Shown here piece after piece: positions 41,814 to 59,691 of a stretch of 64,000 nucleotides of DNA (position 1 is the first letter of the stretch; every line of letters starts with the position of its first letter). A program made the position numbers and the translations under genes. The stretch lies in contig NZ_JAPSHJ010000013.1 in assembly GCF_031179985.1 (NCBI RefSeq), positions 12,710 through 76,709 of the forward strand, given 5' to 3'. This DNA is from Arthrobacter sp. GTDB taxonomy: Bacteria; Actinomycetota; Actinomycetes; Actinomycetales; Micrococcaceae. The notes under the pieces were generated by a model. The model made no database searches, was not told the origin of the DNA, and saw nothing but the letters and a program-made list of their open reading frames with translations.

Positions 41814-42024
41814 CGTCCGGCAGGTCGCGGAGCGGCCTTTGTCAGGGCAAGGAGTACGTCCCTTTCAGGGGCGTGACGGGACGGCGTCGGAATGCGCAAT
41901 TCTTGATGAAATCTAGGTGCCAGCTGCCCTGTTTTACAGTCGGGGCCACGGGGTAGTCTTGCTCGTAAGCGGGGGAAGGCCAGAAAAGCCTTATACCCGC
42001 CACGCGGGACGTAAGGAAAAGTTC

Positions 42025-44763
42025 ATGTCAATCGAGCCACTCAGCTGGGGACGTGGGTCTACTGGTAGCGCGCTTGCTGATCCAGTGACGTTTGCCGGTC
42101 CGGACGAGCATCAAAAATGGTCACTGCCGGCACGAAGCGCTGATCTCGGCCACATCCGCGCCGCCCTGACAGACGCCGATTCCCTGGGCGTTGTCATCAC
42201 CGGGGCACGCGGGGTGGGGAAGTCTTCACTGGCCAGAACCGCTGTCATGGAATTGGGCTCCGAAGTCTTTACCCTCCAGCTGCGCAACACTTTGGCCGGC
42301 TCAAAGACTCCGTATGGCTGCCTTGCATTTCTCCTCGCCCGCCTGCCGCAGGCCGCCATGGGATCGCCCACCGCTATCCTCCAAGGCATCACTTCCCTCA
42401 TCCGGAACGATGCCGGTGGACGGGAGTGCGTCATAACGCTGGACAGTACAGCCAGCCTGGATGACATGAGTGCCGGGGTGCTGCTGAACATCCTGCTGAC
42501 ACGCACTGCGAGGATCATCGCGATTGCCCCGAACATCAGCGATCTGCCGGCTGATTTCCACTGGCTTTTGACGGAGCGGCGGCTCACCGAGGTCCGCCTC
42601 GAGAACCTCAACGAACTGCAGACCAAGCAGGTGCTGCTCTCCTTGCTTGGCCATCGTGTTTCCTCCTCGCTCGTGAGTACCTTCCACTCCATCGTTGGCG
42701 GCAACCCCATGCTCCTGAAGGCACTTGTGGCCGAGCAGCAACTGGCGGGGAACCTTATCCTTTCCGACTCGGTATGGACGCTGCGGGACAAAGTGGTTCT
42801 CGACGGCGGCACCGGGCTCGATGACATCGTCCGCTCCCGCTGGATGCGCGAAACCCCCGAGACACGGGCAGTCATTGAAATGTTGTCCTGCGCGCGGACT
42901 GTTTCCCTGGCGAGGCTGACGGGCGTGTTCGGCACGGACATCATTGCTGACATGGAAGACGCAGGGTTGTTGAGCGTGGCCCGTTCCGACAACCGCTGGG
43001 TGACCCTCAGGGAACAGTACCTCGGTGATGTGGTGCGGTCGTGGCTGAGCGTCGCGCGGCGAAGGGAGTTGCGGACCAAGCTCCTGGGCGACCGTGAGCC
43101 GGACGTCTCGCATATGACACTCGAAGAGCTCATAGGGTTCGCGGCGTGGACCCATGAATGCGAGGCCGAACTGCGGCCGCCCGTCGCGCTGGCGGCAGCT
43201 GAGGCGGCCAATCAGCTGTTCGATCCGAGGTTTGCTCTCACCTGTGCCGGCAGCCTGAAAAAATCGGACGACGAATGGGTGGCGGGGCAGCGCCAAAAGG
43301 CGGCGTCCTGTCTGCTCCTGGATCTTCCGCTGCAAGCCATGGCGGCCCTCGACGACATCACTCCGGCTCAACTGCAGGAACTCGCTGACCTGGACTTCGC
43401 TGAAGTTGTTGCTGCCAAATGCGACGTGATGGTGTGGTTGCCCGAACATAAGAGCAAGGTGCCCGAACTCCTGGGGCAGGCACGGGAGCGCCTCGGAGTG
43501 AAGCGCGGCACCAGGCTGTCCTGGCCCGATCCGCTGGCAGCGGCCGCTAACAGGATCAGCCTGAGTGAATTCGAATACCATGCCTTCACAGGAAATTTTG
43601 CCAATATCGTCCAGGACCTCGAAGAGGCGGCCGACCCCCAGCTGAACAATGATCTCTGGTTCAGGATGCAGTCGGCCATCATCCTCATGGAAGCCCTTTC
43701 AACCATGGGCCGTGAGATGGATGCCCTGCAGCTCATGCGGATGCTCGGCGGCCAGCTCTCTGACGCCGGACACATCGTGGGTCTTCGCGAAAAGTTCTCG
43801 ATCCGGGCATTTACCGTGCTGCTTCAGGCAGGCAGATGGCGGCAGTGCCTCGACCTCGTCAACCCTCCCAGGTCCCAGGACGCCCGTGGCCTCGCATTCC
43901 GGACGTCCGCTTCAGAGTTGTCCACGGGACTTGCCTACGTCTATTCGGGACGCGGAGCCATTGCCCTGGAGTCCCTTCTTTCCTCCGTTGCACAGCTTGA
44001 GCTTCGGCCCGTCATGAACACGCTCCAGGCTGCCTATGCGGCAACGGCCTTTGCCTATGCCCAGATTGGCGACGCCGGCCAGGCGCGCAAGTACCTTGAA
44101 AAGCTCCGCACGTCCCGGGGCGAATGTACCTTCGCCATCAGGACAGTCACCAACTTCTGTGCAGACATGGCAGGCCGGTGGCTGGGGGACGGCGATGCAA
44201 CCAACAGGCTACTGGCCTCCGCACGCGAGGACATTGTCGAGGGCAGGTTTACGCTGGCCGGAATCAGTCTCCTCGGTGCAACTGTGAACGGTTCAGAGGA
44301 CGACTTGCGCCTTCTCGAAACCGTAGCGGGGCATCGGCAGGGCCCGATGGCCGAAATGTCGAGGCTCATAGCAGTGGGCACCCGGACAAAGAACGCAAAA
44401 GTCCTGCTCGCCGGAGGTGAGCTCGCCGCATCAATGGAGCTCGACGTCGTCGAGGCACGTTGTGTGGCCCTTGCTGTTGATTTTGCCCGGATGGCCGGCG
44501 ACTCAACCTCTGCCCGGACTGCGCAGGCACGGCTGGACCATCTCTCCTCCACGGTCAGCAGCCTGCCCATTGTCCCCAGCAGCGGAAGTCCACTCCTTAC
44601 CGCAAGGGAACGGCAGATAGCGCGCCTGGCGGGGCGGGGCACCTCCAACCGTGACATCGCCCAGGAGATGGGCGTCTCGGTCCGCACTGTCGAGGGTCAC
44701 CTCTACCAGGTTTTCACTAAGCTTGGCGTAACCTCACGGGGTGATTTGCCTGGACTCGTCTAG
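42025..44763 (+). CDS. Large NTPase-LuxR (LAL/MalT-like) regulator, copy 1
   Basis: Walker A GARGVGKS, GGNP motif, C-terminal LTARERQIARLAGRG.SNRDIA..SVRTVEGHLYQVFTKLGV; start moved to ATG 42025 (after TAGTCT -10). Confidence 0.92.
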   Translation: MSIEPLSWGRGSTGSALADPVTFAGPDEHQKWSLPARSADLGHIRAALTDADSLGVVITGARGVGKSSLARTAVMELGSEVFTLQLRNTLAGSKTPYGCLAFLLARLPQAAMGSPTAILQGITSLIRNDAGGRECVITLDSTASLDDMSAGVLLNILLTRTARIIAIAPNISDLPADFHWLLTERRLTEVRLENLNELQTKQVLLSLLGHRVSSSLVSTFHSIVGGNPMLLKALVAEQQLAGNLILSDSVWTLRDKVVLDGGTGLDDIVRSRWMRETPETRAVIEMLSCARTVSLARLTGVFGTDIIADMEDAGLLSVARSDNRWVTLREQYLGDVVRSWLSVARRRELRTKLLGDREPDVSHMTLEELIGFAAWTHECEAELRPPVALAAAEAANQLFDPRFALTCAGSLKKSDDEWVAGQRQKAASCLLLDLPLQAMAALDDITPAQLQELADLDFAEVVAAKCDVMVWLPEHKSKVPELLGQARERLGVKRGTRLSWPDPLAAAANRISLSEFEYHAFTGNFANIVQDLEEAADPQLNNDLWFRMQSAIILMEALSTMGREMDALQLMRMLGGQLSDAGHIVGLREKFSIRAFTVLLQAGRWRQCLDLVNPPRSQDARGLAFRTSASELSTGLAYVYSGRGAIALESLLSSVAQLELRPVMNTLQAAYAATAFAYAQIGDAGQARKYLEKLRTSRGECTFAIRTVTNFCADMAGRWLGDGDATNRLLASAREDIVEGRFTLAGISLLGATVNGSEDDLRLLETVAGHRQGPMAEMSRLIAVGTRTKNAKVLLAGGELAASMELDVVEARCVALAVDFARMAGDSTSARTAQARLDHLSSTVSSLPIVPSSGSPLLTARERQIARLAGRGTSNRDIAQEMGVSVRTVEGHLYQVFTKLGVTSRGDLPGLV

Positions 44764-47461
44764 CGGCCGCGTTCCGAAGTCAGGCTCGGTGAACCGGCAG
44801 CTGACCGGACGCCGGGAGACGATGGAACGCGTCTGCCAGACGATCCTCAACAAAACCAGCCAGGCAGTTTTTCTGATCTCCGGCCCCGGGATCGGTAAGA
44901 GCGCCTTGGTCGAAGCAATCAGTGAACGGCTTACCCGGGACATGAATGTCCTGCGGATCCATGGAAGTTCGTCGCTGGCCAAGGTTCCCTTCGGCGTTTT
45001 GGCGCCCTATACCTCCGGACTGTCGGCGGAGGACGCCGTGTCTCCCGTCGCTGTTCTGAGGTCTGTCTGGTCCTACTTCCAAAAACTCCGCTCAGCCAAG
45101 GACGGCCCGCTCCTGCTGGTGGTCGACGACGCCCATCACCTTGATGACGCCACTGCAAGCATTGTCGTTGACATGGTTTCTGCGGGCTGGGCAAGTGTGC
45201 TGGCTACTGGCCGTTCCCGGCCGGGCCTTCCTGCTGCGATGAACCAGCTTTGGTACGACGGACTCGCGGACCGGATCGATCTCCGGCCGCTGACGCAGGA
45301 GCAGGTGGCGGAAGCGGTGGCCCATGCCCTGGAAGGCATCGTCCCTGAAAGTACTGTGCAGGCTCTTTGGGCAGAATCAGGGGGTAATCCCTTATTGCTG
45401 GACTGCCTGCTGAATGACGCTATCGAGTCTGGATCCTTGGTGAAGCGGAACAGCATCTGGCTGCTCCTGGGCTCCTGGCCGTCGGGTGGACGTAAGCTCA
45501 CCGACGTCGTAGCGAAGCAGCTGCAGCGCAGGAGCGCTGAGGAGCAGGAGGCACTGAAGCTGATTGCGCTCTCTGAGCCCGTTCCACGAGGACTTATCGA
45601 AGAAGTGTGCGGTGCTCCGGCTGTCCGTTCCCTCCTGGAACACCAGCTGGTCCGGGAGTCAACAGGGGGGTCGGCCGAGCTGAGGCTGTGGTATCCCAGT
45701 TACAGCGGAGCCATTCGCCGCATGGTCTCAGCATCAAGAAGCCTCCACTTGCGCAAACAGCTGCTTCAGCATGCAGATCACCACCCCGCCACGGCCGAGG
45801 GAATGCTGCGGATGGTCAGCTGGTCACTCGAATGCGGAGCCGAAGTGCCCGATGCGGAATTGCTGGAGGCATCCGTCCTGGCCGCCAGACTGTTCCAGGA
45901 CTCGCTGGCACTGGATGCGGCCGCCCGGATCCGTGACCCCGATCTCCGCCAACGCGGGCAGGTTGCCATGGCCAGGGCCCACTACAATCGGGGCAGCTAT
46001 GAGGAGGCAGCCAGGCAGCTGGATCTCCATTTTGCTGCGGACGGGGAACCTGCACGGAACCCCGGGGATGTGCTCCTCTGGGCCTGCACCCACGCCGCTT
46101 TGGGGCACATTCCGGAGGCGTTCCTCGAAGATGCCCGGCGACTCCTGGACATTAACGGCCATGCTGCCAAAACGGGGGAACTGTCGGACACCTCGGGCAG
46201 CGAGATGCGGCACTGGATCGTCTTGGAACTCTTCGCTCTGAGTGCTGCTGCCGATTACCGGTCGCTGGGCAAATACCTGGATGAATTCGAATCCCTTCGG
46301 CCAGGAGAGGATCTGAGTGGAGGGTCGCCGGCCAGACGGGCTTTTATGCTGGCCATGCGGTCAGAAGTGCTTCGTTCGGAGGGACGGCCCCAGTCGGCGG
46401 AGAACATCGCAGCTGAAGCTCATGCACTCCTCACCGCGGACGGCAGCGAACTCTTCTTCTTCCCTGAGTTTGTGCTCCATCGCCAGCTGGGTGCAGCAAT
46501 GTCCGCCGGACATTGGATAGCAGTGGAGGACTACCTCGGAGCGTATACAAGGCAGCGAAGCCATGCATTGGTCACCTTCGGGGGGACCGTGCAAAGCTGG
46601 CGCGGCCTTTCCCTCCTGCTGCGGGATACGCTCGATACGGCGGGGGCATATCTGCTTCCGGCCGTTGAAGCCCTGCGGGAGAACGACCCGCTTGGCCTGT
46701 TGCCGGTGACTCTCGCGGCGGCGACTTACGCCGCTGCCAGGACGGGAGACACAGTGCAAGCCCGGCGTCTCCTTCAGGATTTTGATTACCTCGAGACCCC
46801 CGGGAGGGGTTTCGACGCCGAGTACGCCCGGATTTTTTCTGCTGCAAGCACTGACGTTCTACGGGGCGGGGATGGCGGCCCGATTACTTTGCTGGCACTT
46901 CTTGATGACCCCTCGGTGGTGTCGTCGCCAGGCGCGGAGCTTTTGATCCACGCTGTGGCCGCGGAACTGGGCCATCACGGCGACTACTCCCGGATTGCCA
47001 GCCTGACAGAGAATATGGAAGGCTCCTGGGCCGGTGCTTGGCATAAGTTTGCCGCCGCGCATCTTTCAGGCACCGCTGCGGACTACCTGGAAGCAGGAGA
47101 AGCTGTGCACGCGGCCGGACTGATACGGGTTGCACGGAACCTGTTTGCAGCTGCAGCTGACCGCTACGGCACTGCCGGCGATCGGCCCCGCTCACGGGAG
47201 GCAGCGGCCCGCAGGGATGATTGTGATCGGGAACTTCGAGTCACTATTGACATTGGGGCGGCCTCCGAGTCGTCCTCCGGAGTCCAGCTGACGCGGCGTG
47301 AGCGGGACATCGTTGTCCTGGCGGTCGAGGGGCTGACTGACAGGCAAATCGCGGACAGACTCATGGTTTCGGTCCGAACCGTTGAAGGGCACCTTTACCG
47401 CAGCTATGCCAAACTTGGCATTCGCGGCCGGGATCAGCTCGCTTCTGCCGTTCGCCTCTGA
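44741..47461 (+). CDS. Large NTPase-LuxR regulator, copy 2
   Basis: GPGIGKS, LVVDDAHHLD, SGGNP, LTRRERDIV..TDRQIA..SVRTVEGHLYRSYAKLG. Confidence 0.93.
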   Translation: MICLDSSSGRVPKSGSVNRQLTGRRETMERVCQTILNKTSQAVFLISGPGIGKSALVEAISERLTRDMNVLRIHGSSSLAKVPFGVLAPYTSGLSAEDAVSPVAVLRSVWSYFQKLRSAKDGPLLLVVDDAHHLDDATASIVVDMVSAGWASVLATGRSRPGLPAAMNQLWYDGLADRIDLRPLTQEQVAEAVAHALEGIVPESTVQALWAESGGNPLLLDCLLNDAIESGSLVKRNSIWLLLGSWPSGGRKLTDVVAKQLQRRSAEEQEALKLIALSEPVPRGLIEEVCGAPAVRSLLEHQLVRESTGGSAELRLWYPSYSGAIRRMVSASRSLHLRKQLLQHADHHPATAEGMLRMVSWSLECGAEVPDAELLEASVLAARLFQDSLALDAAARIRDPDLRQRGQVAMARAHYNRGSYEEAARQLDLHFAADGEPARNPGDVLLWACTHAALGHIPEAFLEDARRLLDINGHAAKTGELSDTSGSEMRHWIVLELFALSAAADYRSLGKYLDEFESLRPGEDLSGGSPARRAFMLAMRSEVLRSEGRPQSAENIAAEAHALLTADGSELFFFPEFVLHRQLGAAMSAGHWIAVEDYLGAYTRQRSHALVTFGGTVQSWRGLSLLLRDTLDTAGAYLLPAVEALRENDPLGLLPVTLAAATYAAARTGDTVQARRLLQDFDYLETPGRGFDAEYARIFSAASTDVLRGGDGGPITLLALLDDPSVVSSPGAELLIHAVAAELGHHGDYSRIASLTENMEGSWAGAWHKFAAAHLSGTAADYLEAGEAVHAAGLIRVARNLFAAAADRYGTAGDRPRSREAAARRDDCDRELRVTIDIGAASESSSGVQLTRRERDIVVLAVEGLTDRQIADRLMVSVRTVEGHLYRSYAKLGIRGRDQLASAVRL

Positions 47462-47592
47462 CCCGTCATCAGGTCGGGAACCACCTGTCCATGCAGAGAC
47501 AGTAATGTTCACAACTACTTGTTTTTTTCGGTGGCAAACAAGCGAGGCATGAGTACACCTGTTCTTCCTACTTCGGCAACTACTGGGAAATG

Positions 47593-47607
47593 GAGTACTT
47601 CGTACTC
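47593..47607. promoter_or_regulatory. GAGTAC-N3-GTACTC palindrome, candidate operator upstream of LuxR copy 3
   Basis: Perfect 6-3-6 inverted repeat; extra (C/G)TACT half sites nearby; TAAGTT -10 at 47631-47636. Confidence 0.45.
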
Positions 47608-47679
47608 GTGTCCATGGTCAAGGACTTTCGTAAGTTGGGGGTTAGCACGGGCCCCTAACGGGATACGAAGGACTTCACC

Positions 47680-50373
47680 ATGATTCATTCAGACGCCGCC
47701 ACTCTCCCCGGCCTCAGACGCCCACAGGTTTTGCAGGGCGAGCACGTCCCCAACGGCATGTCGGCGTACTGCAGAAAGCCCTTGGTGGATGAGGTTCTGG
47801 CGGCTCTGGCGCAGGGCCAGAACCTCGGCGTGGTCTTGGTGGGGACCTACGGGACAGGAAAGACCTATCTGGCGCGGCAGGCGCTCGATCGACTCGACGG
47901 GCAGGCCTTCGTTGTTCAAATCCGGGGGAGTTCCGCCGCTGATGCCATGCCATACGGCGCCCTGAGTTCGTTGTTGTGCGAACTGGATGAAGACCTGGTC
48001 ACCAGCCCATTGGCCGTACTCAGGGGAATAACGCAACTTCTGCGGCGCAGGGCGGACGGAAAGAGCATCCTCGTGTTTGTGGACAACGTCCAGGACCTCG
48101 ATGAACTTGCCGCAGTGGTCCTCACCCAGCTGGCGGCCAACGGAACGGTGCAGCTCGTCGTCACCTGCCAGGATCTGCCCAAGGCTCCACGTGGGATCGT
48201 GGGGCTGTGGAAGGACGGATTGTTGCACCGCGTGGATGTACGCCCCTTCAGCCAGCCGGACGTAGCGCAGTGGCTGGAAGCAACGCTTGGCGGACCCGTA
48301 TCATTGGCCTGCAGCGAGGTGCTGTACAACGCCAGCGGCGGGAACCCACGCTTTCTGGAAGCCATCCTGCACGAGCAGACCCGGGCGGCCACTCTGGTGC
48401 ATTCCGACGGCGTCTGGGTGCTGACGGGCAAGCCGCTTGCTTACAGCCGGACCATGACAGATACGGTCTTCACTGCCCTCAGTTCCATTTCCGCTGCTGA
48501 GAAGCACGTGACCGAAGTGCTGGCCTTGGCGGGAACCCTGACCCTTGACCATCTCATCAGCGTCAGCGATCCGGCGGCCATTGATGCCCTGCAGCAACGC
48601 GGGTACCTCACCGTAGTGCACGGCGATCCATCGTCGGTTTCCCTCACGAATGCGCTGATGGCCAACGTTGTCCGCAAAGAAGTACCGGCAGGCCGGAGCA
48701 GGGAACTCCTCGCCGGCGTCGTTGCTTGTGCAGATTTCTCCGTTATGCCCCCGTCAGCAGAATTATCCCTGGCCGCATGGGCAGCTGATTGCGGAATGCA
48801 ACTGGAGGCAGATAAGGCTCTCTACGCTGCAGGGCTGGCCAACCGTGCAGGAAACCCGGCCTTGGCCCTCCGCCTCATCGACTTGCTCCATGACCCGGCA
48901 GGGCGGGTTGCAGCTGTGGCGGAAAAGATCAGGGCACTCATCGGGTTGGGTGAGCTGGTGAAGGCGAGGAACCTCGCTTTGGACCCTGCCGCCGTCGCCG
49001 AAGCGCCCTTGAGGCGCTGGGTTGACATCATGCTGCTCCGAAGCGCATTGCTGTGCTCCGATGACAGACCGGAGGCAGATCCGCGTGCGCCGCTGGACGA
49101 AGTCCATGCCCGGCTAAAAGCGGAGGAATCGGGTTCAGACCCTGATGCCCACGGTCTGTTGGATATGCGCGAGGAGCTTTCATTGGCCCAGGCGCAGGTT
49201 GCCGTCCATGATGGCCGGTACCGGGAGGCTCTTTCAGGCCTGACGCGTCTCGTTGATGGTGCGCCAAGCACTGAAGGCCGCACGCTGGCCGCGAGCTTGC
49301 TTGCCGCCCTGTTGGCTCTGACCGGGCGCGGGGCCGAGGCATCATCGCTGATGAGGTCGGTACGGGCGTCGCGCTCAGAAATCGACGTACCGCTGCCTAT
49401 GCACACCTTGCCTGCCTCTGCCCTGTTGGGGTTGCTGCCGGCAGCGTCTACAGCCCACGACGCCGCGGCAGTTGCAGCCGGGTCCAACATCTTCCTGGCG
49501 GCACACGGCGCCACCTCACGGGAGCTTGGAACAGGTGTTCTGGACGCCTACTGCGGACGATCCGAACAGGCTCTGGAACGATTGATCCCCGCCCTGAGCC
49601 AGCTGAAGCAACTGGATCCGGACAGCACGTCCGCATTGGGAGCAGCCTCCATTGCCTACGCGTACGCTTTGCTGGGCGAAAAAGACCTTGCCTTGGAATA
49701 CCTGCAAACGAGCCAGCGGGAGCAAAAACGGACCTCGAGATGGGTACTGAGCGTCTGCTCCTACTTCCAGCTGCTGACCTCCGCTGAACTCGCTTCGAAG
49801 GAAAAGGCAATCGTGCGCCTGTTCGGGCTCGCGGATGAAGCCCGCAGCAGGCACGCCACCGCCCTGGAGCTGATGTTCCTGAGCGCAGCCGTGCGGTTGG
49901 GCAGTAACGGCGGGACTGAGCGCCTGGTGGCGGTTGCGTCCAGCGTCCAGAGCACTCTTGGCCGGCAATGCGAAGCGTATGGAACAGGAGTTATCAAGCG
50001 GAACAGTTCCGCGCTCCTTGAGGTAGCCAGGGAGGCCGCTACCGCAGGAAATGTGGTCTTCGCCAGGGACGCTGCTCGGGCAGCCCTCAAAATTGCGAAC
50101 GATGCTTCTGACAGGAACGCTATCAGGGCCGCGCAGCAGCTGATCCGGGGAGGTGCGCCGGCAGCAGCTGGAGGCGGACACGCGTCCCTGGGGGAGGGGC
50201 AACTGACGGCCCGCGAACATGAGGTGGCAGCCATGGCCGCCGCCGGTGTGAGCAACAAAGACATCGCAGCCAAAATGCATATTTCGGTTCGTACCGTTGA
50301 GGGCCATCTTTACCAGATTTACGGCAAGCTGCAGGTGACCTCACGGGCCGAACTCAGGGAATCATTTGCATAG
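47680..50373 (+). CDS. Large NTPase-LuxR regulator, copy 3
   Basis: GTYGTGKT, VFVDNVQDLD, SGGNP, LTAREHEVA..SNKDIA..SVRTVEGHLYQIYGKL. Confidence 0.93.
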   Translation: MIHSDAATLPGLRRPQVLQGEHVPNGMSAYCRKPLVDEVLAALAQGQNLGVVLVGTYGTGKTYLARQALDRLDGQAFVVQIRGSSAADAMPYGALSSLLCELDEDLVTSPLAVLRGITQLLRRRADGKSILVFVDNVQDLDELAAVVLTQLAANGTVQLVVTCQDLPKAPRGIVGLWKDGLLHRVDVRPFSQPDVAQWLEATLGGPVSLACSEVLYNASGGNPRFLEAILHEQTRAATLVHSDGVWVLTGKPLAYSRTMTDTVFTALSSISAAEKHVTEVLALAGTLTLDHLISVSDPAAIDALQQRGYLTVVHGDPSSVSLTNALMANVVRKEVPAGRSRELLAGVVACADFSVMPPSAELSLAAWAADCGMQLEADKALYAAGLANRAGNPALALRLIDLLHDPAGRVAAVAEKIRALIGLGELVKARNLALDPAAVAEAPLRRWVDIMLLRSALLCSDDRPEADPRAPLDEVHARLKAEESGSDPDAHGLLDMREELSLAQAQVAVHDGRYREALSGLTRLVDGAPSTEGRTLAASLLAALLALTGRGAEASSLMRSVRASRSEIDVPLPMHTLPASALLGLLPAASTAHDAAAVAAGSNIFLAAHGATSRELGTGVLDAYCGRSEQALERLIPALSQLKQLDPDSTSALGAASIAYAYALLGEKDLALEYLQTSQREQKRTSRWVLSVCSYFQLLTSAELASKEKAIVRLFGLADEARSRHATALELMFLSAAVRLGSNGGTERLVAVASSVQSTLGRQCEAYGTGVIKRNSSALLEVAREAATAGNVVFARDAARAALKIANDASDRNAIRAAQQLIRGGAPAAAGGGHASLGEGQLTAREHEVAAMAAAGVSNKDIAAKMHISVRTVEGHLYQIYGKLQVTSRAELRESFA

Positions 50374-51718
50374 CTGACGGAGTCCGACGGAGACTGAGGG
50401 CATCCATGATGGCGGCAACGGCTGCATCCACGCCGACTTCAGCCGTGTTGATGACCAGATCCGCATCAGCCGGCACTTCATAGGGCGAGCTGATTCCGGT
50501 AAATTCCGGAATCTGGCCAGCCCGGGCCCGTGCATAGAGTCCTTTCCTGTCCCGCGCTTCGCACACACTCAGCGGAGTGGACACATGGACCAGGATGAAG
50601 GAGCCCGCCGGAGCCATCGCCCGCACTTCCCGTCGGGTGGAATCAAACGGCGCAATGGGCGCACACACGGCGTCGCCCCCGGAAGCAGCAATCAGCGAAG
50701 CGACCCAGCCGATACGGCGGATGTTCGTTTCCCTGTCCTCCTTTGAGAAGCCGAGCCCCGACGAAAGCAACCGACGGACATCGTCGCCATCGAGTAGTGT
50801 CACAGTCCTCTCACCTGCCGCCTGCAGCCGTTGCGCGAGGGCTCGGGCGATGGTCGATTTTCCCGATCCTGAGAGCCCGGTGAAGAAGACGACGCTACCC
50901 GTAGTGCTGCCTGCCCCCGTGTTGCCCGATACCGGGTGGGCGGGGAGTGACTGGCTTGGGATTGACTGGTTTGGCATTGCCTGGCTTGGACGATGGCCGA
51001 AGCGCGCATGGTCGATGCCGGCCTGTGGCTCATCCGGGACTGTGAAGTCCAGAAGTACATTGGCGCCAAGGTTTCGGAAGACGAGCTCCTGGATCAGCTC
51101 GTCCTCCCGATTGCCCGAACGGGCCGGCGACCGGAGCACCAACAGCCTGGAACTGGAACCGGGAACTTCAGCGGCGCATTGCTCAAGGACAGTCATCAAC
51201 TCCAGCGCTGTATACCGCCCGTGCTGCTGCGGACCGGTAACAGCCACCAGGCAGAGGTCTGCGTTGCGGCTTGCGGCGACGGAAACTGCGCGGGCCATCT
51301 GGGCTGCCAGCGGGGGCTTGGAGAAGGCGGACACAACGAACTTCCGGCCAGCAGCGGAAGCCAGTGGTTCTGTTATGCGCAAGTGTCTGAGAGGCGGATG
51401 CTCTGCTGCCTTAAGCGGGCTCAAGGCCCCTGCGAGGTAGATTCCCGTCCCCGGAGCTGACTCGAAGCCGGAAACTGTCAGGAGGGCCAGGGGGGTGCCG
51501 TCCGGATCGCATAGCAGCAGCGCAGATTCCCGTACGGCGCGTTCGCCCACCGAACGGGGCAGCAACAAGGTCACCGCGGTGGGCCAACGGACCGGAACAC
51601 TGGAGGGCAGGCAGTATCCGTGGGCGGGAGCGTACAAGCCACCCAGAAGGAGCTCAAGCTCATCCAAGGCACCGTCCGAAAGTACGTGCCACGGAAGGGC
51701 GCCCGCATGGGGGGTCAT
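50354..51718 (-). CDS. cysC: Adenylyl-sulfate kinase with an N-terminal degenerate Sat-type ATP-sulfurylase region
   Basis: C-terminal FFTGLSGSGKST, LLDGDDVR, GFSKEDRETNIRRIG, CEARDRKGLY, FTGISSPYEVP; N-terminal LDELELLLGG.YAP..CDPDGTPLALL PUA-like segment. Confidence 0.9.
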   Translation of the reverse strand: MTPHAGALPWHVLSDGALDELELLLGGLYAPAHGYCLPSSVPVRWPTAVTLLLPRSVGERAVRESALLLCDPDGTPLALLTVSGFESAPGTGIYLAGALSPLKAAEHPPLRHLRITEPLASAAGRKFVVSAFSKPPLAAQMARAVSVAASRNADLCLVAVTGPQQHGRYTALELMTVLEQCAAEVPGSSSRLLVLRSPARSGNREDELIQELVFRNLGANVLLDFTVPDEPQAGIDHARFGHRPSQAMPNQSIPSQSLPAHPVSGNTGAGSTTGSVVFFTGLSGSGKSTIARALAQRLQAAGERTVTLLDGDDVRRLLSSGLGFSKEDRETNIRRIGWVASLIAASGGDAVCAPIAPFDSTRREVRAMAPAGSFILVHVSTPLSVCEARDRKGLYARARAGQIPEFTGISSPYEVPADADLVINTAEVGVDAAVAAIMDALSLRRTPSAMQMIP

Positions 51719-52689
51719 GGCTGCCTCTCCATCGAGTGGAGGGTGTGAGTTGCCGATGGTGCTGCGCTGCGGCGTTGGCGCATCTCGCTCGTGGCCAGGG
51801 CGGGAAATCCTTTCGAACGCCGAATGGCCATCCAGACGAACGGCGCCACCAGGACTGCTCCTGCCAGTAATATGGCTGTGGGGAGCGTGTCCACTCCCAG
51901 CATTTTCAGGCCGGAGGCAAACAGGACCACTGCAAGCGCCCTGCGAATGAATCCGCCGTTAAGTCGGCTCGAGAGTTGTGCACCCAAAAAGACGCCCGGC
52001 ACGCTTCCGAGGATCAGGGGAAGCGTCAGTTCGAGGCTGAGCTCACCGAAAAGGGAATGACTGACGGCGGCGGCGGCCACCAGGGGGACAGCCTGTACAA
52101 GGTCCGTTCCTACCAGCTGACCGGCTTTCAGCCCCGGATAAATCATCATCAGCCCGATGATAATGAGTGAACCGGAACCCACTGACGTCATCCCGACCAC
52201 CAGACCGCCGAACACGCCCAGGACTATGGTTACCAGGGGGCGGGCGGATATCAAGGGACGTGCGTGCGGAAGACCGGTGCCCTGTCCGCTCCGGCTTTTA
52301 GCCCGCTCCTGGAGCCTCAGGTACGCCCGGACTGCCAGGAGGCCAGCGGCAAGCAGCAGGGCCGCTCCCAGAGCTGTTTTAACTGTCGTCTGAGCGGCAT
52401 CTCCTGGTCCCAGCCATTTCAGGATCAACACACCGCTGAAGGCTGCCGGGACAGAGCCAATTATCAGCCACTTCACGAGCTCAAGGTTGACGGTGCCGCG
52501 GCGGAGGTGGACTGCCGATCCAACAGGTTTCATGACAGCGCTCGCCACCAGATCACTGGATACCGCAGCCAGGGGCGGAACCCCAAAAACCAGCACGAGT
52601 ACAGGAGTCATCAGCGCGCCACCACCCATGCCGGTAAGACCGACCACTATTCCCACGCCGAAGGCGGCGAACACCAGCATCATGTCCAT
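51715..52689 (-). CDS. TauE/SafE-family (sulfite/sulfate) permease
   Basis: VGLTGMGGGALMTPVLV, AVSSDL, GMTSVGSGSL, LVGTDL.QAVPL, GSVPGV.LGA; start uncertain. Confidence 0.92.
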   Translation of the reverse strand: MDMMLVFAAFGVGIVVGLTGMGGGALMTPVLVLVFGVPPLAAVSSDLVASAVMKPVGSAVHLRRGTVNLELVKWLIIGSVPAAFSGVLILKWLGPGDAAQTTVKTALGAALLLAAGLLAVRAYLRLQERAKSRSGQGTGLPHARPLISARPLVTIVLGVFGGLVVGMTSVGSGSLIIIGLMMIYPGLKAGQLVGTDLVQAVPLVAAAAVSHSLFGELSLELTLPLILGSVPGVFLGAQLSSRLNGGFIRRALAVVLFASGLKMLGVDTLPTAILLAGAVLVAPFVWMAIRRSKGFPALATSEMRQRRSAAPSATHTLHSMERQP

Positions 52690-53210: not shown

Positions 53211-54758
53211 ATGAGTCCATTGGACGAATCCGCTTTCATGGGCCCGGGCCTGAAACTGGGCCCACACCCGCACAGCTACCCGGAACGTGGCAGTTCACGC
53301 CTCGAGCAATCGAGCCAGCAGACCAAAACCACAGGCCTCAGATGGGCCGGCCGTTACCAGCGGATTCTGTTCCTGTCGGATGCGCTGGTGCTGGCCGTTG
53401 TTGCTGCTGCCGCCCAAGTGGGCAGATTTGGCTTTGACGACAGAGACGTTACGGTCGGATTTTTCGAAGTCGCCTACACCTACCTCTCCATCGGGATCGC
53501 AGCCGCCTGGATGGTGGTGCTTGGTATTTACCGCACACGTGATCCCCGGGTAGTGGGGGTTGGCGCCGAAGAGTACAAGCGCGTCATCAGCGCCACCGTC
53601 ACCCTGTTGGGGCTTGTGGCAATTCTTTGTGCAGTCCTCAAAATTGACGTGGCCAGAGGCTACTTCGCGCTCGCCTTCCCGTTAGGGATCGTGGGGTTGA
53701 TCTCCTCGCGCTGGATTCTGCGCCAGTGGCTCACCAAGCAACGGACATTCGGGCATTATTTGTCGCGCGTCATCGTCCTGGGCCGTGGAAAGGACGTCCG
53801 CTACGTCATCAACCAGATCCAGAAAAAATCAGGCGCTGCATATGAAGTGGTGGGCGCAGCGTTGCCACACGCGGAGGAAAGGGAATTCCTCATTACCGGA
53901 TCAGGTCCGGTTCCTGTGGTGGCCACCGTGGGCACAGTCGTGGAGGCGGTTGAGCGCCTTGAGGCGGACGCCGTGATTGTGGCAGGACCGGTCAAGGGCG
54001 GCAGCAAGTACGTTCAACGGCTGGGTTGGAAGCTGGAGGAATCCGCGACGGAACTGGTGCTGGCCACCGGGTTGACGAACGTGGCCGGCCCCAGAATCCA
54101 TTCCCGCCCGGTTGAGGGACTTCCGCTGATGCATGTGGAGCTTCCACGCTACTCAGGAGCGAAGCACGTCCTCAAGAGGCTCCTGGACATTGTTCTCTCC
54201 GCTATGGCCTTGATCGTCCTGCTTCCTGTTTTCGCGGTCCTCGCATTCCTGATCAAGCGGGACAGTGATGGCCCTGTGATCTTCCGTCAGGAAAGGATTG
54301 GCCAGGGCGGCAAGAAGTTCCTGATGTACAAGTTCCGGTCAATGGTGCAGACGGCCGAGGATGACCTTGCCGGACTTCTGGACCAGAACGAGGGCTCCGG
54401 TGTCCTGTTTAAGATGCGTCATGACCCACGCGTCACGGATGTCGGACGCTGGATGCGCAAATACTCGCTCGACGAACTGCCCCAATTCTGGAATGTGCTG
54501 CTGGGGGACATGAGCCTGGTAGGCCCGCGGCCGCCTCTGCAGCGGGAAGTGGATGGCTATAAGGCCCGTGTCCACAGGAGGCTTTACATCAAGCCAGGCC
54601 TGACAGGAATGTGGCAGATCAACGGACGGTCCGAGCTCAACTGGCAGGACAGCATCCGACTGGACCTCTACTACGTCGAAAACTGGTCACTTGCCGGCGA
54701 CATCATCATCCTGTGGCGGACCGTCAAAATGCTCATCAACCCACAGGGAGCGTACTGA
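53211..54758 (+). CDS. Priming polyprenyl-phosphate sugar-1-phosphate transferase (WcaJ/CpsE/WbaP family)
   Basis: N-terminal TMs, CoA_binding_3-like region, [76 protein letters not shown]. Confidence 0.96.
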
Positions 54759-55678
54759 TGAAGGGCATTCCGATCGATGTGACGCGGCTGACTTTGCTCG
54801 GGGAAATCGCAGCCGTTGCCGGGTCCAGGGCCGATGAAGAGCTGGCGCGCGAGCTGGCCACCGTCGCTGGATCGATGTTGCTCGCCTTCCGGGAATCCGC
54901 GGATGGGGCCGGCTTAGCTGCAGATGAACTGCGTGCTCAGGGTGACGCACGCGCCCAGAAACTGCTGAGCAAGGCCCTGCTTCAGCACCGGCCAGATGAT
55001 GCCGTCCTCTCTGAAGAGGCACCTGACGATCCGGCCCGCCTGTCCGCCCACCGGGTGTGGATCATCGACCCGTTGGACGGAACCAGGGAATTCGCTGAGG
55101 GTCGAAGCGATTGGGCTGTGCATGTTGCGCTGCACTCCCACGGGAGGTTGACCGCTGGAGCGGTTGCCGTTCCCGCATTGGGTTACGTCACTGGCCGCAA
55201 GGACGGGCTATGGGTACGGAAACCCGGCCGGCAGCTTCGAATCGCTGTTTCCCGGTCCCGGCCTCCCCAACTGGCGGAAGCCGTGGCTGGACGACTTGGC
55301 GCAAAACTCGAGCCGATGGGGTCAGCCGGGTACAAAACCTGCGCCGTTATCAGCGGGGAGGTAGATGCCTACCTGCATTCGGGCGGCCAGTTTGAGTGGG
55401 ATTCAGCGGCACCGGTTTTCGCTGCGCGCCAGGCTGGATTGCACGCCAGCCGGGTGGACGGTTCGGAGTTGCTGTACAACCAGAAGTCGCCGAGCCTGCC
55501 TGATCTGCTGATTTGCCACCCAGATATTCGCGACATACTGCTGGTGGCCATTGCGGACGTTCTGAAAGATCCGTCCGGCAGAGGTTCTTTGGCCCAGCGC
55601 GCATCAGGAGAGCGTTCATCAGGACAGCGTCCGTCCGGACAGTCCCGCTATGGGAACGCACAGGACAGGAGAGGCTGA
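54758..55678 (+). CDS. cysQ: 3'(2'),5'-bisphosphate nucleotidase (PAP phosphatase)
   Basis: VLSEE, VWIIDPLDGTREF, DWAVHVAL, VSRSR, MGSAG.K, GQFEWDSAAP; TGATG overlap. Confidence 0.93.
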   Translation: MKGIPIDVTRLTLLGEIAAVAGSRADEELARELATVAGSMLLAFRESADGAGLAADELRAQGDARAQKLLSKALLQHRPDDAVLSEEAPDDPARLSAHRVWIIDPLDGTREFAEGRSDWAVHVALHSHGRLTAGAVAVPALGYVTGRKDGLWVRKPGRQLRIAVSRSRPPQLAEAVAGRLGAKLEPMGSAGYKTCAVISGEVDAYLHSGGQFEWDSAAPVFAARQAGLHASRVDGSELLYNQKSPSLPDLLICHPDIRDILLVAIADVLKDPSGRGSLAQRASGERSSGQRPSGQSRYGNAQDRRG

Positions 55679-56595
55679 TGACTCCCAAAGATCGGCCCAA
55701 GCGCAGGCTGACGCAGCTCGAAGTGCTGGAGTCGGAGGCGATCTTCATCATCCGCGAAGTGGTCGCCGAGACGGACAATCCGGCGATGCTGTTCTCCGGA
55801 GGCAAGGACTCCATGGTGATGCTCCATCTCGCCGTGAAGGCCTTCGCCCCAGGATCCGTGCCGTTTTCCCTCCTTCACGTGGATACCGGGCACAACTTTC
55901 CGGAAGTTCTGGAGTTCAGGGACCGCTGTGTAGGTAAGTACTTGCTGAACCTCGTGGTGGCCTCTGTCCAGGACGCATTGGACCGCGGCATAGTTCACCA
56001 AGAACCGAACGGCTCGCGCAACAGAATCCAAACGCCTGTGCTGCTCGAAACTGCGCAGAAGAACGGGTTCACCGCATTGCTGGGCGGCGCACGCCGGGAT
56101 GAAGAAAAGGCCCGTGCGAAGGAACGTGTATTTTCGTTCCGGGACGAGTTTGGGCAGTGGGATCCGAAAAACCAGCGCCCCGAGCTGTGGAGCATCTTCA
56201 ACGCCGAGGTCCACCAAGGTGAAAGCATCAGGGTGTTTCCGCTCTCCAACTGGACCGAACTGGACGTCTGGGACTACATCCGCCAAGAGGGCATTGATCT
56301 TCCGTCGATCTACTACGCGCACGAGCGGGAAGTCTTCGAACGCGGGGGCATGCTGTTTGCGGCCAACGAATTCTGCAGGCCTAAAAACGACGAGCCCACG
56401 TCAGTGCAAAAAGTCAGGTACCGGACAGTCGGCGATGCGACCCTGACGGCTGCTGTCCGCTCCGATGCCGACACCGTGGACAAGGTGGTAGCTGAGATAG
56501 CAACCACCCGGATCACGGAGCGCGGTGCGACCCGGGGAGATGACCGCGTCGGTGCAGCGGCCATGGAGGACCGGAAGAAAGAAGGCTACTTCTAA
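55678..56595 (+). CDS. cysD: Sulfate adenylyltransferase subunit 2
   Basis: LESEAIFIIREV, FSGGKDS, HVDTGHNF, GGARRDEEKARAKER, PELW, RVFPLSNWTE, RYRTVGD, MEDRKKEGYF. Confidence 0.98.
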   Translation: MTPKDRPKRRLTQLEVLESEAIFIIREVVAETDNPAMLFSGGKDSMVMLHLAVKAFAPGSVPFSLLHVDTGHNFPEVLEFRDRCVGKYLLNLVVASVQDALDRGIVHQEPNGSRNRIQTPVLLETAQKNGFTALLGGARRDEEKARAKERVFSFRDEFGQWDPKNQRPELWSIFNAEVHQGESIRVFPLSNWTELDVWDYIRQEGIDLPSIYYAHEREVFERGGMLFAANEFCRPKNDEPTSVQKVRYRTVGDATLTAAVRSDADTVDKVVAEIATTRITERGATRGDDRVGAAAMEDRKKEGYF

Positions 56596-57842
56596 TGGAT
56601 CTCTTGAGATTTGCCACGGCGGGATCCGTAGATGACGGCAAGAGCACCTTGATCGGACGGTTGCTCTATGACTCGAAATCCATCTTCACGGATCAGCTTG
56701 AATCCATTGAGCGGACCAGCCGGGCCATGGGTTCGGACTACACGGAACTGGCGTTGCTCACTGACGGGTTAAGGGCAGAACGTGAGCAAGGGATAACCAT
56801 CGACGTCGCCTATAGATACTTTGCTACGGCTAAGCGGAAATTCATCGTGGCGGACACACCCGGACATATCCAGTACACACGGAACATGGTGACCGGGGCA
56901 TCCACCGCCGACATGGCTATTATGCTCGTCGATGCGCGGAAGGGGCTGCAGGAGCAAAGCCGGCGCCATGCATTCCTTGTCTCGCTGCTGAAAGTGCCGC
57001 ACCTGGTGCTTGCCATAAACAAGATGGATCTCGTTGCCTGGTCTCAGGACGTCTTTGAGGATATCCGGCATGACTTCGTGGAATTCGCCGCCAAGCTCGA
57101 TATTCCTGACCTGACGGTCATACCGCTTTCCGCCCTCACCGGTGACAACGTGGTGAGCCGCTCAGAGAATATGCCCTGGTACCAGGGAACGTCGCTGATG
57201 ACCCATCTGGAGAACGTTTACATAGCCAGTGACAGGAATTTGGTGGATGGCCGGTTCCCTGTCCAATACGTGATCCGGCCCCATTCAAACCGCTTCCCCG
57301 ATTACCGCGGGTACGCGGGGAAGATCGCCGGCGGAGTCATGCGCATCGGCGATGAGGTGGTGGTCCTGCCCAGCGGGCTTCCGTCGCGCATCGCCTCGAT
57401 CGAGTCCGCAAGCGGACCTGTCAACGAAGCGTTCGCTCCAATGTCCGTCGTCGTGCGGCTCGAGGACGACATTGATATCTCACGCGGGGACATGATTTGC
57501 AGACCGCACAACCAGCCAAAAGTCTCGCAGGATATTGACGCGATGATCTGTTGGATGAGCGAGGAGCCCTTGCGCCCGGGCCAGAAGCTGGTGGTCAAGC
57601 ACACCACACGGCGGGCGCGGGCACTCGTCAAGGACGTGCAGTACGAACTGGACATCAACACCCTGCACCGCAACGAACAGGCGGAGGAGCTCAAGCTCAA
57701 CTCCATCGGGAGGGTTCGGCTGCGCACCACCATTCCGCTTCTTGCGGATGAGTACCACCGAAACAGGGAAACAGGCGGCTTCATCCTCATTGATGAACAC
57801 TCCCTGCGAACAGTAGGCGCGGGGATGATCCTGTCCGTCTGA
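56595..57842 (+). CDS. cysN: Sulfate adenylyltransferase subunit 1 (GTPase), no fused CysC
   Basis: TAGSVDDGKSTLIGRLL, DGLRAEREQGITIDVAYRYF, DTPGH.QYTRNMVTGAS, NKMD, RFPVQYV, TGGFILID..TVGAGM. Confidence 0.97.
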   Translation: MDLLRFATAGSVDDGKSTLIGRLLYDSKSIFTDQLESIERTSRAMGSDYTELALLTDGLRAEREQGITIDVAYRYFATAKRKFIVADTPGHIQYTRNMVTGASTADMAIMLVDARKGLQEQSRRHAFLVSLLKVPHLVLAINKMDLVAWSQDVFEDIRHDFVEFAAKLDIPDLTVIPLSALTGDNVVSRSENMPWYQGTSLMTHLENVYIASDRNLVDGRFPVQYVIRPHSNRFPDYRGYAGKIAGGVMRIGDEVVVLPSGLPSRIASIESASGPVNEAFAPMSVVVRLEDDIDISRGDMICRPHNQPKVSQDIDAMICWMSEEPLRPGQKLVVKHTTRRARALVKDVQYELDINTLHRNEQAEELKLNSIGRVRLRTTIPLLADEYHRNRETGGFILIDEHSLRTVGAGMILSV

Positions 57843-57895: not shown

Positions 57896-58399
57896 ATGAG
57901 AACAGCCAGGTATGGTGTCCGCAATCATCCCGTTGCGCCCGGAACCGAGAGGATTCTGCTGGTTGGATCCAGCGGCGGCCATCTCGCGCAATTGCTGGCC
58001 CTTGAACCCTGGTGGGCGCACCAATCGAGGGCCTGGGTAACCTTCAAAACGCCCGACGCCGAGTTCGGCCTGCGGAATGAGCAAGACGTCACTTGGGCAT
58101 ACTCCCCAACCACCCGGAACATCCCGAACCTGCTGCGGAACTCAAAACTGGCGTGGTCATTGATGCGGCAGTTCCGTCCAACCGTGGTGATCTCGACTGG
58201 AGCAGGAAGCGCCCTGCCCTTTTTTGCCCTTGCGAAGATGATGTCCACCACAACTGTGTACATAGAAGTTTATGACCGGGTAGACAGCCCCACGCTCACC
58301 GGAAGACTGTGCCGGCCATTTACCGACCTGATGTTGGTCCAGTGGCGTGACCAGCTGGGACTCTACCGTGACGCCCATGTACTGGGGAGACTGCTGTGA
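57896..58399 (+). CDS. Alg14/PssD/CpsF-family glycosyltransferase N-half (acceptor-binding)
   Basis: LVGSSGGHLAQL, WVTF..PD, PTTRNIPNL, VVISTGAG.ALPFF, VYIEV.DR..PTLTGRL, VQW. Confidence 0.93.
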   Translation: MRTARYGVRNHPVAPGTERILLVGSSGGHLAQLLALEPWWAHQSRAWVTFKTPDAEFGLRNEQDVTWAYSPTTRNIPNLLRNSKLAWSLMRQFRPTVVISTGAGSALPFFALAKMMSTTTVYIEVYDRVDSPTLTGRLCRPFTDLMLVQWRDQLGLYRDAHVLGRLL

Positions 58400-59691
58400 A
58401 CGAGGCTCCAGTACATGGCCAGCCGGACAATGCCTCCACTCCGAGAAGCATCAGTGTTCTTGTGGGTACTGACCATCACGAGTTTTCCCGGTTGGTCGAC
58501 TGGGCTGATGGTTGGGCAACCGAACATCCGCAGGACAAAGTCACGGTGCAGTTCGGCCACAGCCGGGCACCCGCTTCTGCCGAGGGGCACAGCTTCATGT
58601 CTCCTGCCGCGCTCGCCGAACTCATGGCCACGAGCGACATCGTTGTTGCGCATGGCGGACCTGCCACTATCTCCGGGGCGAGAGCTGCGGGGCACGTACC
58701 GCTGGTGCTGCCAAGGGATCCGGCCCTGGGAGAGCATGTTGACGATCATCAGCAGCGGTTCGCGAGCTGGTCCGCCCAGAGATCGTTGGTCACCAAGGTG
58801 GTATCGGTGCCGGAGCTGCAGGAACGGGTCTCGGCCTTGGCAGGGGAAGGTTCAGGGACCAAGAGCGGAAACCTCGATGGAGCGCGGCAGGGCGACGACG
58901 CGGCAAGCCACCTTCCGCTGCTCCTGGCGAAGGCGAGGACTGCAACCAACCGAGCCACTCCAGGCGCCCCCGTGGTTTTGTACGTCTCCGGCGCAAGTGC
59001 GGCGACGTCGTCGTACCTTTCCGCCCTCAGCCGTGCAGAAGGCGCCGTGATGCTGGGGGATATCGGGCAGCTATGGGAGCAGGGCATAGTCAAAAACGCC
59101 GGCTGCGCCTGCGGGGCGCCTTTTTCCTCCTGTCAGTTCTGGCTTCGAGTGGGGAAGGAGGCCTTTGGAGGCTGGGATGATGTGGACGTCCGCTCCATCA
59201 AACGGCTGGGGGAGTCCGTCAGGTCTGCTGGAAAACTGATGCTGGGGGTCCTGCCCTTTGAACCTCCGTTGCTCCGCCGACAGCTCGCTGAGCACTCGTC
59301 GTACTACCTTGCTCTGTTCCGGGCAGTGCAGGACATCACCGGCGGGAAGGTGCTGGTGTGTTGCGGTGCGGACCCTGTTCTGGCTTTCGCCTTGAGCCAC
59401 AACCGTGAAATTGATGTGCGGATTCTGTATCTGGCTGGAAGGCCGGGCCGGCCAGTGATCAGCGACGACGTCCCCGGTTCGTTAGCCGCGAGATGGCTGT
59501 CCTCGAGGATGGGGGCACAATTCCTCAGGATGCGTCACGTTCCCCGCGCCGTCATCGGGCGCAAGCGTTATCTGAACGACCCCTTGAAAGCACTGCACTC
59601 GGTGGGCCGAAAACTCGAGCTCCCCGATTCCTGGCCCGTTCAAGGCGCTCCCCAGGAGTTCCATCCCCTTCTGCGAGAGGACCTGCCGTGA
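58396..59691 (+). CDS. Fusion: Alg13/PssE/CpsG GT28 C-half plus a degenerate sulfotransferase-like domain
   Basis: VLVGTDHHEFSRL..VQFG..VVAHGGPATI..PR....GEHVDDHQ (PssE); from aa ~193 VVLYVSG..GDIGQLWEQG..CACGAPFSSCQFW..AFGGW..YYLALFRAVQDITGGKVLV. Confidence 0.8.
   Translation: MNEAPVHGQPDNASTPRSISVLVGTDHHEFSRLVDWADGWATEHPQDKVTVQFGHSRAPASAEGHSFMSPAALAELMATSDIVVAHGGPATISGARAAGHVPLVLPRDPALGEHVDDHQQRFASWSAQRSLVTKVVSVPELQERVSALAGEGSGTKSGNLDGARQGDDAASHLPLLLAKARTATNRATPGAPVVLYVSGASAATSSYLSALSRAEGAVMLGDIGQLWEQGIVKNAGCACGAPFSSCQFWLRVGKEAFGGWDDVDVRSIKRLGESVRSAGKLMLGVLPFEPPLLRRQLAEHSSYYLALFRAVQDITGGKVLVCCGADPVLAFALSHNREIDVRILYLAGRPGRPVISDDVPGSLAARWLSSRMGAQFLRMRHVPRAVIGRKRYLNDPLKALHSVGRKLELPDSWPVQGAPQEFHPLLREDLP

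Follow-up and report, generated by a model that had tools for sequence, protein, structure and literature searches.

Adenosine 5'-phosphosulfate (APS) kinases that carry an inactive ATP-sulfurylase-like domain (SLD) at their N-terminus are already known from Thiobacillus denitrificans and Entamoeba histolytica. The structure of the two-domain enzyme from T. denitrificans (TdAPSK, Tbd_0210; PDB ID: 3CR8) has been solved (Gay, Segel & Fisher 2009), and its SLD, which has no sulfurylase activity, was proposed to stabilize the hexamer (Gay 2009, as reported in citing papers). The E. histolytica enzyme (EhAPSK; PDB IDs: 23vk and 23vl) likewise combines a non-functional SLD with an active kinase domain (PMC6715247; bioRxiv 10.64898/2026.04.02.716029), and removal of the SLD lowers its kcat about 100-fold through the loss of contacts made in trans (bioRxiv 10.64898/2026.04.02.716029). 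Two functions have thus been put forward for the SLD of such kinases, that of a hexamer scaffold in Thiobacillus and that of a kinase activator in Entamoeba. Here, a shortened member of this class is described from the soil actinobacterium Arthrobacter sp. It is encoded on the reverse strand at positions 50354-51718 of a stretch of 64,000 nucleotides (hereafter the window; NCBI RefSeq assembly GCF_031179985.1, contig NZ_JAPSHJ010000013.1, positions 12,710 to 76,709 of the forward strand) in a genome that is 96% complete.

Several better-known systems share parts of this architecture. The bifunctional 3'-phosphoadenosine 5'-phosphosulfate (PAPS) synthase of Aquifex aeolicus (PDB ID: 2GKS), a fusion of ATP sulfurylase (Sat) and APS kinase (CysC), has the same domain order and a homologous kinase; intact Sat-CysC proteins, however, keep the sulfurylase motifs QTRNPMHRAH, VGRDHAG, and PFR together with full domains II and III, all of which the Arthrobacter protein lacks. 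The fungal ATP sulfurylase of Penicillium chrysogenum (PDB IDs: 1I2D and 1M8P) is also a two-domain protein of the Sat/APS kinase type with one pseudo-enzyme domain, but there the dead part is the kinase-like domain, which provides an allosteric site for PAPS, whereas here it is the sulfurylase-like one. This contrast with the inactive kinase-like domain of fungal Sat has already been drawn in the literature (bioRxiv 10.64898/2026.04.02.716029). In mycobacteria, CysDN makes APS and CysC converts it to PAPS for sulfated cell-envelope products, with assimilation proceeding via APS reductase (PMC4373884). The mycobacterial CysC is fused to CysN (CysD/CysNC), whereas the CysN2 of the present locus stands alone and a Sat relic is attached to the kinase instead.

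The architecture of a dead-SLD APS kinase is therefore known; what sets the present protein apart is the shortened SLD, the loss of every motif remnant, and the steady partnering with a CysDN/CysQ/TSUP module in actinobacterial glycopolymer clusters. No paper describing the short form was found in a literature search that had most subscription journals outside its reach. With a probability of roughly 0.8, the sole APS kinase of this genome consists of a dead sulfurylase-like domain, a flexible linker, and an active kinase, and would provide one step of a self-contained PAPS supply module.

Domain layout and kinase domain

According to the open reading frame (ORF) list and its translation, the gene encodes a protein of 454 amino acids (aa) that is predicted to be an APS kinase with an N-terminal dead SLD (SLD-APSK). 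Three parts can be distinguished, all on the reverse strand: the SLD (residues 1-228), a disordered linker (residues 229-271, positions 50906-51034), and the APS kinase domain (residues 272-445, positions 50384-50905). The best PDB match of the whole protein is 3CR8 (E 1.1e-66), split over two stretches, so that both halves find their closest structure in TdAPSK. The SLD itself comprises the PUA-like domain I of Sat (about residues 1-118, positions 51365-51718), assigned by profile alignment to 3CR8 and to domain I of yeast ATP sulfurylase (ATPS) and modeled with a predicted local distance difference test score (pLDDT) of about 90-97, and the first half of the catalytic HUP/Rossmann-like domain (about residues 119-228, positions 51035-51364), assigned from the secondary structure of the model and from structural alignment with VIA-align. 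This second part contains four β strands and three helices and terminates at the position of the GRD loop. The linker, rich in Pro, Ser, Ala, Gly, and Gln and modeled with a pLDDT of about 32, differs in length and sequence between family members.

The kinase domain is readily recognized. It matches Pfam APS_kinase (PF01583; 6e-57, residues 274-424), scores 187.9 bits against TIGR00455 (cut-off 138.7), and aligns with the kinase domain of 3CR8 at 208 bits (E 1.8e-60 for that stretch). No other APS_kinase match was found in the genome. The P-loop GLSGSGKST (residues 281-289, positions 50852-50878) is intact, in agreement with an earlier reading of the window that a model had made from the sequence alone (hereafter the sequence-only reading). 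Across 30 family members, neither the P-loop nor the LDGD motif nor the RDRKGLY lid varies. All catalytic motifs of the domain are retained, in keeping with the SLD-APSK class, and it is predicted to be active.

Homology of the N-terminal domain to ATP sulfurylase

Single-sequence searches with the N-terminal part gave weak results (Pfam ATP-sulfurylase PF01747, E 0.013; phmmer to 3CR8, E 1e-3; no Pfam match to PUA_2), and a family profile and a domain-only model were therefore needed. A profile covering residues 1-228, for which 17 proteins were translated from the genomes of relatives, matches 3CR8 (E 6e-23) and yeast ATPS (E 9e-15), the matched region being domain I plus the N-terminal half of domain II. 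The AlphaFold model of the same residues is confident (pLDDT 90.8; predicted template modeling score, pTM, 0.86), and the top 33 Foldseek matches obtained with it are all ATP sulfurylases (E 2e-12 to 3e-6). In VIA-align, the model superimposes on 20 ATP sulfurylase entries with Z scores of 14.9-18.4 over 212-221 residues, including 3CR8 (Z 18.4, root-mean-square deviation 3.1, 218 residues), yeast ATPS (Z 18.2), and Aquifex 2GKS (Z 16.6), while the best-scoring proteins of another fold class (universal stress proteins and further HUP folds) reach only Z 7.4. Both the profile and the modeled fold thus indicate that the SLD is a true homolog of Sat domains I and II, far above chance.

The sequence-only reading had compared about 230 N-terminal residues with the PUA-like and catalytic regions of Sat-CysC fusions, pointing to the motifs DELELLLGGLYAP (residues 19-31) and LCDPDGTPLALL (residues 69-80), both of which are present. 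The homology that it proposed is borne out by profile alignment to the Thiobacillus protein and by structural similarity to both 3CR8 and 2GKS; its extent is not, because the Sat fold is represented here by domain I and only the first half of domain II.

Loss of the sulfurylase motifs and truncation of the domain

The hallmark of an active ATP sulfurylase is a set of four motifs, QXRN, HXXH, VGRDHAG, and PFR, the first two corresponding to Q195-N198 and H201-H204 of the yeast enzyme (PMC6607087). The fate of these motifs was followed in an alignment (A4) of five intact Sat-CysC proteins that have QTRNPMHRAH and GRD (loci L017, L035, L057, L058, and L071), two Thiobacillus-type long forms, and other short forms. 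In the Arthrobacter SLD, the stretch FSKPPLAAQMA (residues 132-142, positions 51293-51325) replaces FQTRNPMHRAH; its first nine residues (132-140) are those already singled out from the sequence alone. QXRN is absent (the aligned residues are F-S-K-P or S-K-P-P, and the family consensus has no Gln, Arg, or Asn there), and so is HXXH (L-A-A-Q or A-A-Q-M, without a histidine). At the place of VGRDHAG the SLD ends in LLDFT, and no GRD occurs ahead of the P-loop. PFR is missing with the whole second half of domain II, a deleted segment in whose place the disordered linker stands, and domain III is wholly deleted as well. Because the sulfurylase motifs are lost, the SLD is very probably unable to make APS. 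The earlier proposal of a dead Sat-type domain joined to an intact kinase agrees with this pattern, in which four sulfurylase motifs are missing and the kinase motifs are kept.

The extent of the truncation is clear from the structural alignment, in which model residues 5-228 correspond to residues 29-291 of yeast ATPS and the correspondence stops at D291 of the GRD loop. The protein resembles TdAPSK in having an N-terminal Sat-homologous domain without sulfurylase function ahead of an APS kinase, and a segment of about 25 residues of domain I that is present in intact Sat is missing from both (A4). Nevertheless, the Thiobacillus SLD is complete, comprising about 350 aa and including domain III, and retains the Gln, the Arg, and the first His of QXRN/HXXH, whereas all four motifs have gone from the Arthrobacter SLD. 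A linker of 43 residues stands where 3CR8 has about 100 residues (264-366) that are not matched in the Arthrobacter SLD; the protein therefore does not possess the complete SLD of domains I, II, and III seen in 3CR8 and is filed as a short variant of SLD-APSK. The SLD of EhAPSK lacks the substrate-binding loop, which is comparable to the short form; that enzyme, however, is a eukaryotic mitosomal protein whose SLD construct has 317 aa, and the similarity of its SLD sequence to the present one is marginal (E 0.04-0.1).

Two Sat-CysC genes in metagenome-assembled genomes (MAGs) were noted besides. The one of a Myxococcota MAG (L020:10001-11698, forward strand) encodes QTRNPMHRAH but no GRD tripeptide before the P-loop, and may stand midway in a process of decay or have a variant form of the loop. 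The other, from a Geminicoccaceae MAG (L076:266-1987, forward strand), is of the intact type (QTRNPMHRAH and GRD) with one internal stop codon, on account of which it was left out of the alignments; it may be a pseudogene or reflect an assembly error.

Gene neighborhood and a putative PAPS supply module

Immediately upstream of the kinase gene, and on the same strand, lies a gene for a TSUP/TauE-family permease (positions 51715-52689, the longest ORF extending to 52797; Pfam TauE, 1.8e-42). The two genes are translationally coupled: they overlap by ATGA, with the kinase start on the permease stop and the ribosome-binding site GGAGAGG. The TSUP family takes in the sulfate transporter CysZ from Corynebacterium glutamicum (PMC5840216), which makes sulfate uptake a reasonable guess, and indeed the likely one, for the putative function of this permease.

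A divergent operon follows on the forward strand. It starts with a priming polyprenyl-phosphate sugar transferase (positions 53211-54758; Pfam Bac_transf, 8e-70) and continues with a CysQ-like 3'(2'),5'-bisphosphate nucleotidase for the removal of 3'-phosphoadenosine 5'-phosphate (PAP) (positions 54758-55678; Pfam Inositol_P, 7e-32; TIGR01331, 7e-29, below cut-off), a second sulfate adenylyltransferase small subunit, CysD2 (positions 55678-56595; NF003587, 3.6e-132; TIGR02039 above cut-off), and the GTPase subunit CysN2 (positions 56595-57842). The four genes are chained by TGATG/TAATG overlaps; the transferase and cysQ overlap by TGATG, and cysQ is overlapped in this way at both ends. The CysD-CysN pair lies 4 kb from the kinase gene.

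CysN2 has 415 aa and matches TIGR02034 end to end (1.5e-172, positions 1-406 of 406), without the CysC domain, just as had been noticed from the sequence alone. Against the CysNC fusion model NF004035 it covers only positions 23-431 of 632 and scores 677 bits (cut-off 715), whereas the product of the kinase gene covers only positions 458-629; neither is thus a CysNC fusion by this model. CysN2 is about 48-50% identical to assimilatory-type CysN (both compared with the loci of relatives).

The arrangement is conserved. The kinase gene adjoins cysQ-cysD-cysN in all ten related Micrococcaceae loci, with TauE next to it in eight of them and the priming transferase in six. PF01747, the Sat catalytic family, has no match in the genome, which leaves CysDN as the only candidate source of APS, and the suggestion of the sequence-only reading that CysDN is the APS maker gains support from both observations.

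Given this gene content and synteny, a five-step module can be proposed. The co-translated permease would import sulfate, CysD2/CysN2 would produce APS at the expense of GTP hydrolysis, and SLD-APSK would convert APS to PAPS; a sulfotransferase of the same glycopolymer cluster would then spend PAPS on a cell-wall glycopolymer, and CysQ would clear the by-product PAP. Downstream of cysN, the cluster contains PssE-like, glycosyltransferase family 2 (GT2), and TagF-like genes. The only ORF of the genome with a sulfotransferase domain (Sulfotransfer_1, 3.8e-12; Sulfotransfer_3, 3.6e-13) lies on the same contig as the glycopolymer cluster, about 10 kb past the end of the window (C83:86612-87802 = L008:16613-17803, forward strand). 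The first ~140 residues of its product have no domain assignment, and it is preceded by a gene for a cytidylyltransferase-oxidoreductase fusion and a gene for a PKD-repeat protein.

Sulfur assimilation appears to be served elsewhere. An assimilatory operon with sulfite reductase (sir), cysH, cysD, and cysN (encoding a CysN of 477 aa) lies on another contig (C30; L009:5039-9940, reverse strand) and is followed by a gene for an NMT1-type binding protein. The CysH encoded there has CC...CXXC...ECGLH cysteines. The CC, CXXC, and ECGLH cysteines of CysH mark iron-sulfur APS reductases; with a CysH of this type, cysteine synthesis should not need PAPS. It would follow that the module next to the kinase gene serves sulfation rather than assimilation, and the gene set probably makes PAPS for a sulfated cell-wall polymer. 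A literature search for sulfated cell-wall polymers of Arthrobacter returned nothing relevant. The conserved combination of TSUP permease, kinase, and cysQ-cysD-cysN marks Micrococcaceae glycopolymer clusters that probably make such polymers.

Conservation and role of the SLD

Among the 30 family members, 23 positions of the SLD are invariant, the majority of them belonging to the PUA-like part and to the AEHPPxRxLR stretch; the invariant columns of domain I are L18-P38, D71-L77, and E106-R114. In the catalytic remnant, F132 is the only invariant residue. Pairwise identities average 43% in the SLD and 66% in the kinase domain, and the dN/dS ratio, from a single usable pair with dS about 1, is 0.20 for the SLD versus 0.13 for the kinase domain. 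No interrupted copies (i.e., copies with stops) were seen in 13 genomes. Sequence conservation and modeled fold together indicate that a clade of actinobacterial proteins has kept the SLD in well-folded form.

By analogy with the two characterized homologs, the SLD is probably an oligomerization scaffold and/or an activator that contacts the kinase domain of the partner subunit; the long flexible linker would make such a contact in trans possible. Structure, oligomerization, and regulation, the roles that the sequence-only reading had offered for the relic, match the published ones. Because this natural form has kept no more than domain I and half of domain II, it helps to narrow down the part of the SLD that is required and would be a convenient construct for that question.

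Several points weigh against this picture of a scaffolded or activated kinase within a dedicated sulfation module. Some of the contacts that hold the TdAPSK hexamer together may lie in the portion of the SLD that has been deleted in the short form, so that the scaffold role may not be transferable, and the full-length model, with a pTM of only 0.51, says little about the arrangement of the domains. The dN/dS value comes from one fairly distant pair. On the side of the module, the uptake direction of the TSUP permease is presumed only, and the sulfotransferase, 16.5 kb beyond cysN2 and outside the window, is linked to it by co-location alone.

It is also conceivable, though doubtful, that the truncated SLD is a minimal functional core whose conserved PUA-like surface is enough to activate the kinase in trans or to dock it onto CysD2N2. 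A sulfate-activating complex held together non-covalently would then have arisen here separately from Thiobacillus and Entamoeba. A related but unlikely explanation treats the SLD purely as a docking module for CysD2/CysN2, which would pass APS straight to the kinase in a non-covalent complex and so do the job of the mycobacterial CysN-CysC fusion. The adjacency of the kinase gene to cysQ-cysD2-cysN2 in all ten relatives and the stand-alone CysN2 would fit such a complex, as would a conserved surface, suggested by the grouping of the invariant SLD residues in the PUA-like domain. The same residues, however, are also conserved in intact Sat and are perhaps only structural, and the roles proposed for the characterized homologs lie within the homo-oligomer. 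Docking can coexist with a scaffold or activator role.

That the SLD acts as an allosteric sensor, its binding of APS, PAPS, or sulfate preserved, is considered very unlikely; it would invert the situation in fungal Sat, whose dead kinase-like domain binds PAPS. In favor of a sensor, the fold of the half-domain is still of the nucleotide-binding HUP/Rossmann-like kind, with weaker matches (Z about 7) to universal stress proteins that bind nucleotides, and fungal Sat provides a precedent for a regulatory pseudo-domain. Against it, QXRN, the phosphosulfate anchor, and the substrate-binding GRD loop are both lost, PFR, the gate of the adenine site in active Sat, falls within the deleted half, and only F132 is invariant in the catalytic remnant. 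The SLD of EhAPSK, moreover, was reported without substrate binding. Least credible of all is the view that the SLD has no function and is in the course of disappearing. The existing truncation, the lower conservation relative to the kinase domain, and the variable loop and linker lengths could be cited for it, but against it stand the confident fold and the 23 invariant residues that persist across Micrococcaceae members, the same short form in Nocardioidaceae of the same clade, the dN/dS of about 0.2 (one pair), and the lack of any kinase-only derivative of the clade in searches of the protein collection and of 1.84 billion cluster representatives.

Distribution and phylogeny

In a quick, unrooted maximum-likelihood tree with branch supports from the Shimodaira-Hasegawa-like approximate likelihood ratio test (SH-aLRT), in which the long and short labels are crude for rows beyond the main clade, 44 short forms make up one clade (SH-aLRT 99) that includes Micrococcaceae and Aeromicrobium; the short form is thus a clade of Micrococcaceae and Nocardioidaceae. 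The opposite side of the tree is made up of intact Sat-CysC proteins, further actinobacterial forms, and the long form of Thiobacillus, and the order of events is not readable from such a tree. The Thiobacillus form clusters with intact Sat-CysC rather than with the short-form clade.

The gene is patchily distributed. The SLD was found in 12 of 200 sampled genomes of the same family and in none of nine genomes of the same genus. Of the 201 family genomes searched, no more than 16 have a strong APS-kinase match (own genome counted; the sample includes G131, which has a weak P-loop match only), so that the SLD-APSK gene is regarded as accessory. A search of 1.84 billion cluster representatives with the SLD returned 29 matches at E <= 1e-3, two of them false: P0053 and P0054 are Ig-repeat (Big_9/cadherin-like) proteins in which a repeated DPDGDPL motif accounts for the match, and they were rejected as members. 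In an indexed protein collection, about 40 clusters match the SLD, the closest named protein being that of Arthrobacter sp. R4-81 (93% identical over the scored part, residues 1-235). These proteins are named adenylyl-sulfate kinase (Arthrobacter/Paenarthrobacter) or, in some sources, sulfate adenylyltransferase; for annotation, the clade should be named adenylyl-sulfate kinase, and neither bifunctional Sat/CysC nor sulfate adenylyltransferase.

Some members vary in a surface loop of the SLD located between the last strand-helix pair (columns 245-280 of alignment A1), where some Arthrobacter homologs, the A. zhaoguopingii proteins among them, show expansions. In P0038 and P0036 the expansions are tandem GSGPA-type repeats differing in copy number, and P0032, P0035, and P0039 carry other low-complexity insertions there.

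Other features of the locus and the family

The strongest APS_kinase match of the family sample (1.8e-70) belongs to a different protein, encoded in another genome of the same family (G006:C18:12149-12598, reverse strand) within an open frame of 679 aa that is not matched by the SLD query. This frame may be a CysNC-type fusion, in which case the family would have a second kinase architecture.

The PssE-like glycosyltransferase half encoded downstream of cysN2 (positions 58396-59691, forward strand) has a Glyco_tran_28_C domain at residues 19-150, scores below the cut-off of the NCBIfam PssE model, and bears a C-terminal extension of ~280 aa with no Pfam match. On the other side of the kinase gene, three tandem regulators of about 900-950 aa (positions 41917-50373, forward strand) combine an AAA_16 NTPase domain with a C-terminal GerE/LuxR helix-turn-helix. 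The last of them ends 20 bp inside the 3' end of the kinase gene in a convergent overlap, and comparable regulator arrays stand beside the locus in six of the ten relatives, with partial copies in a seventh.

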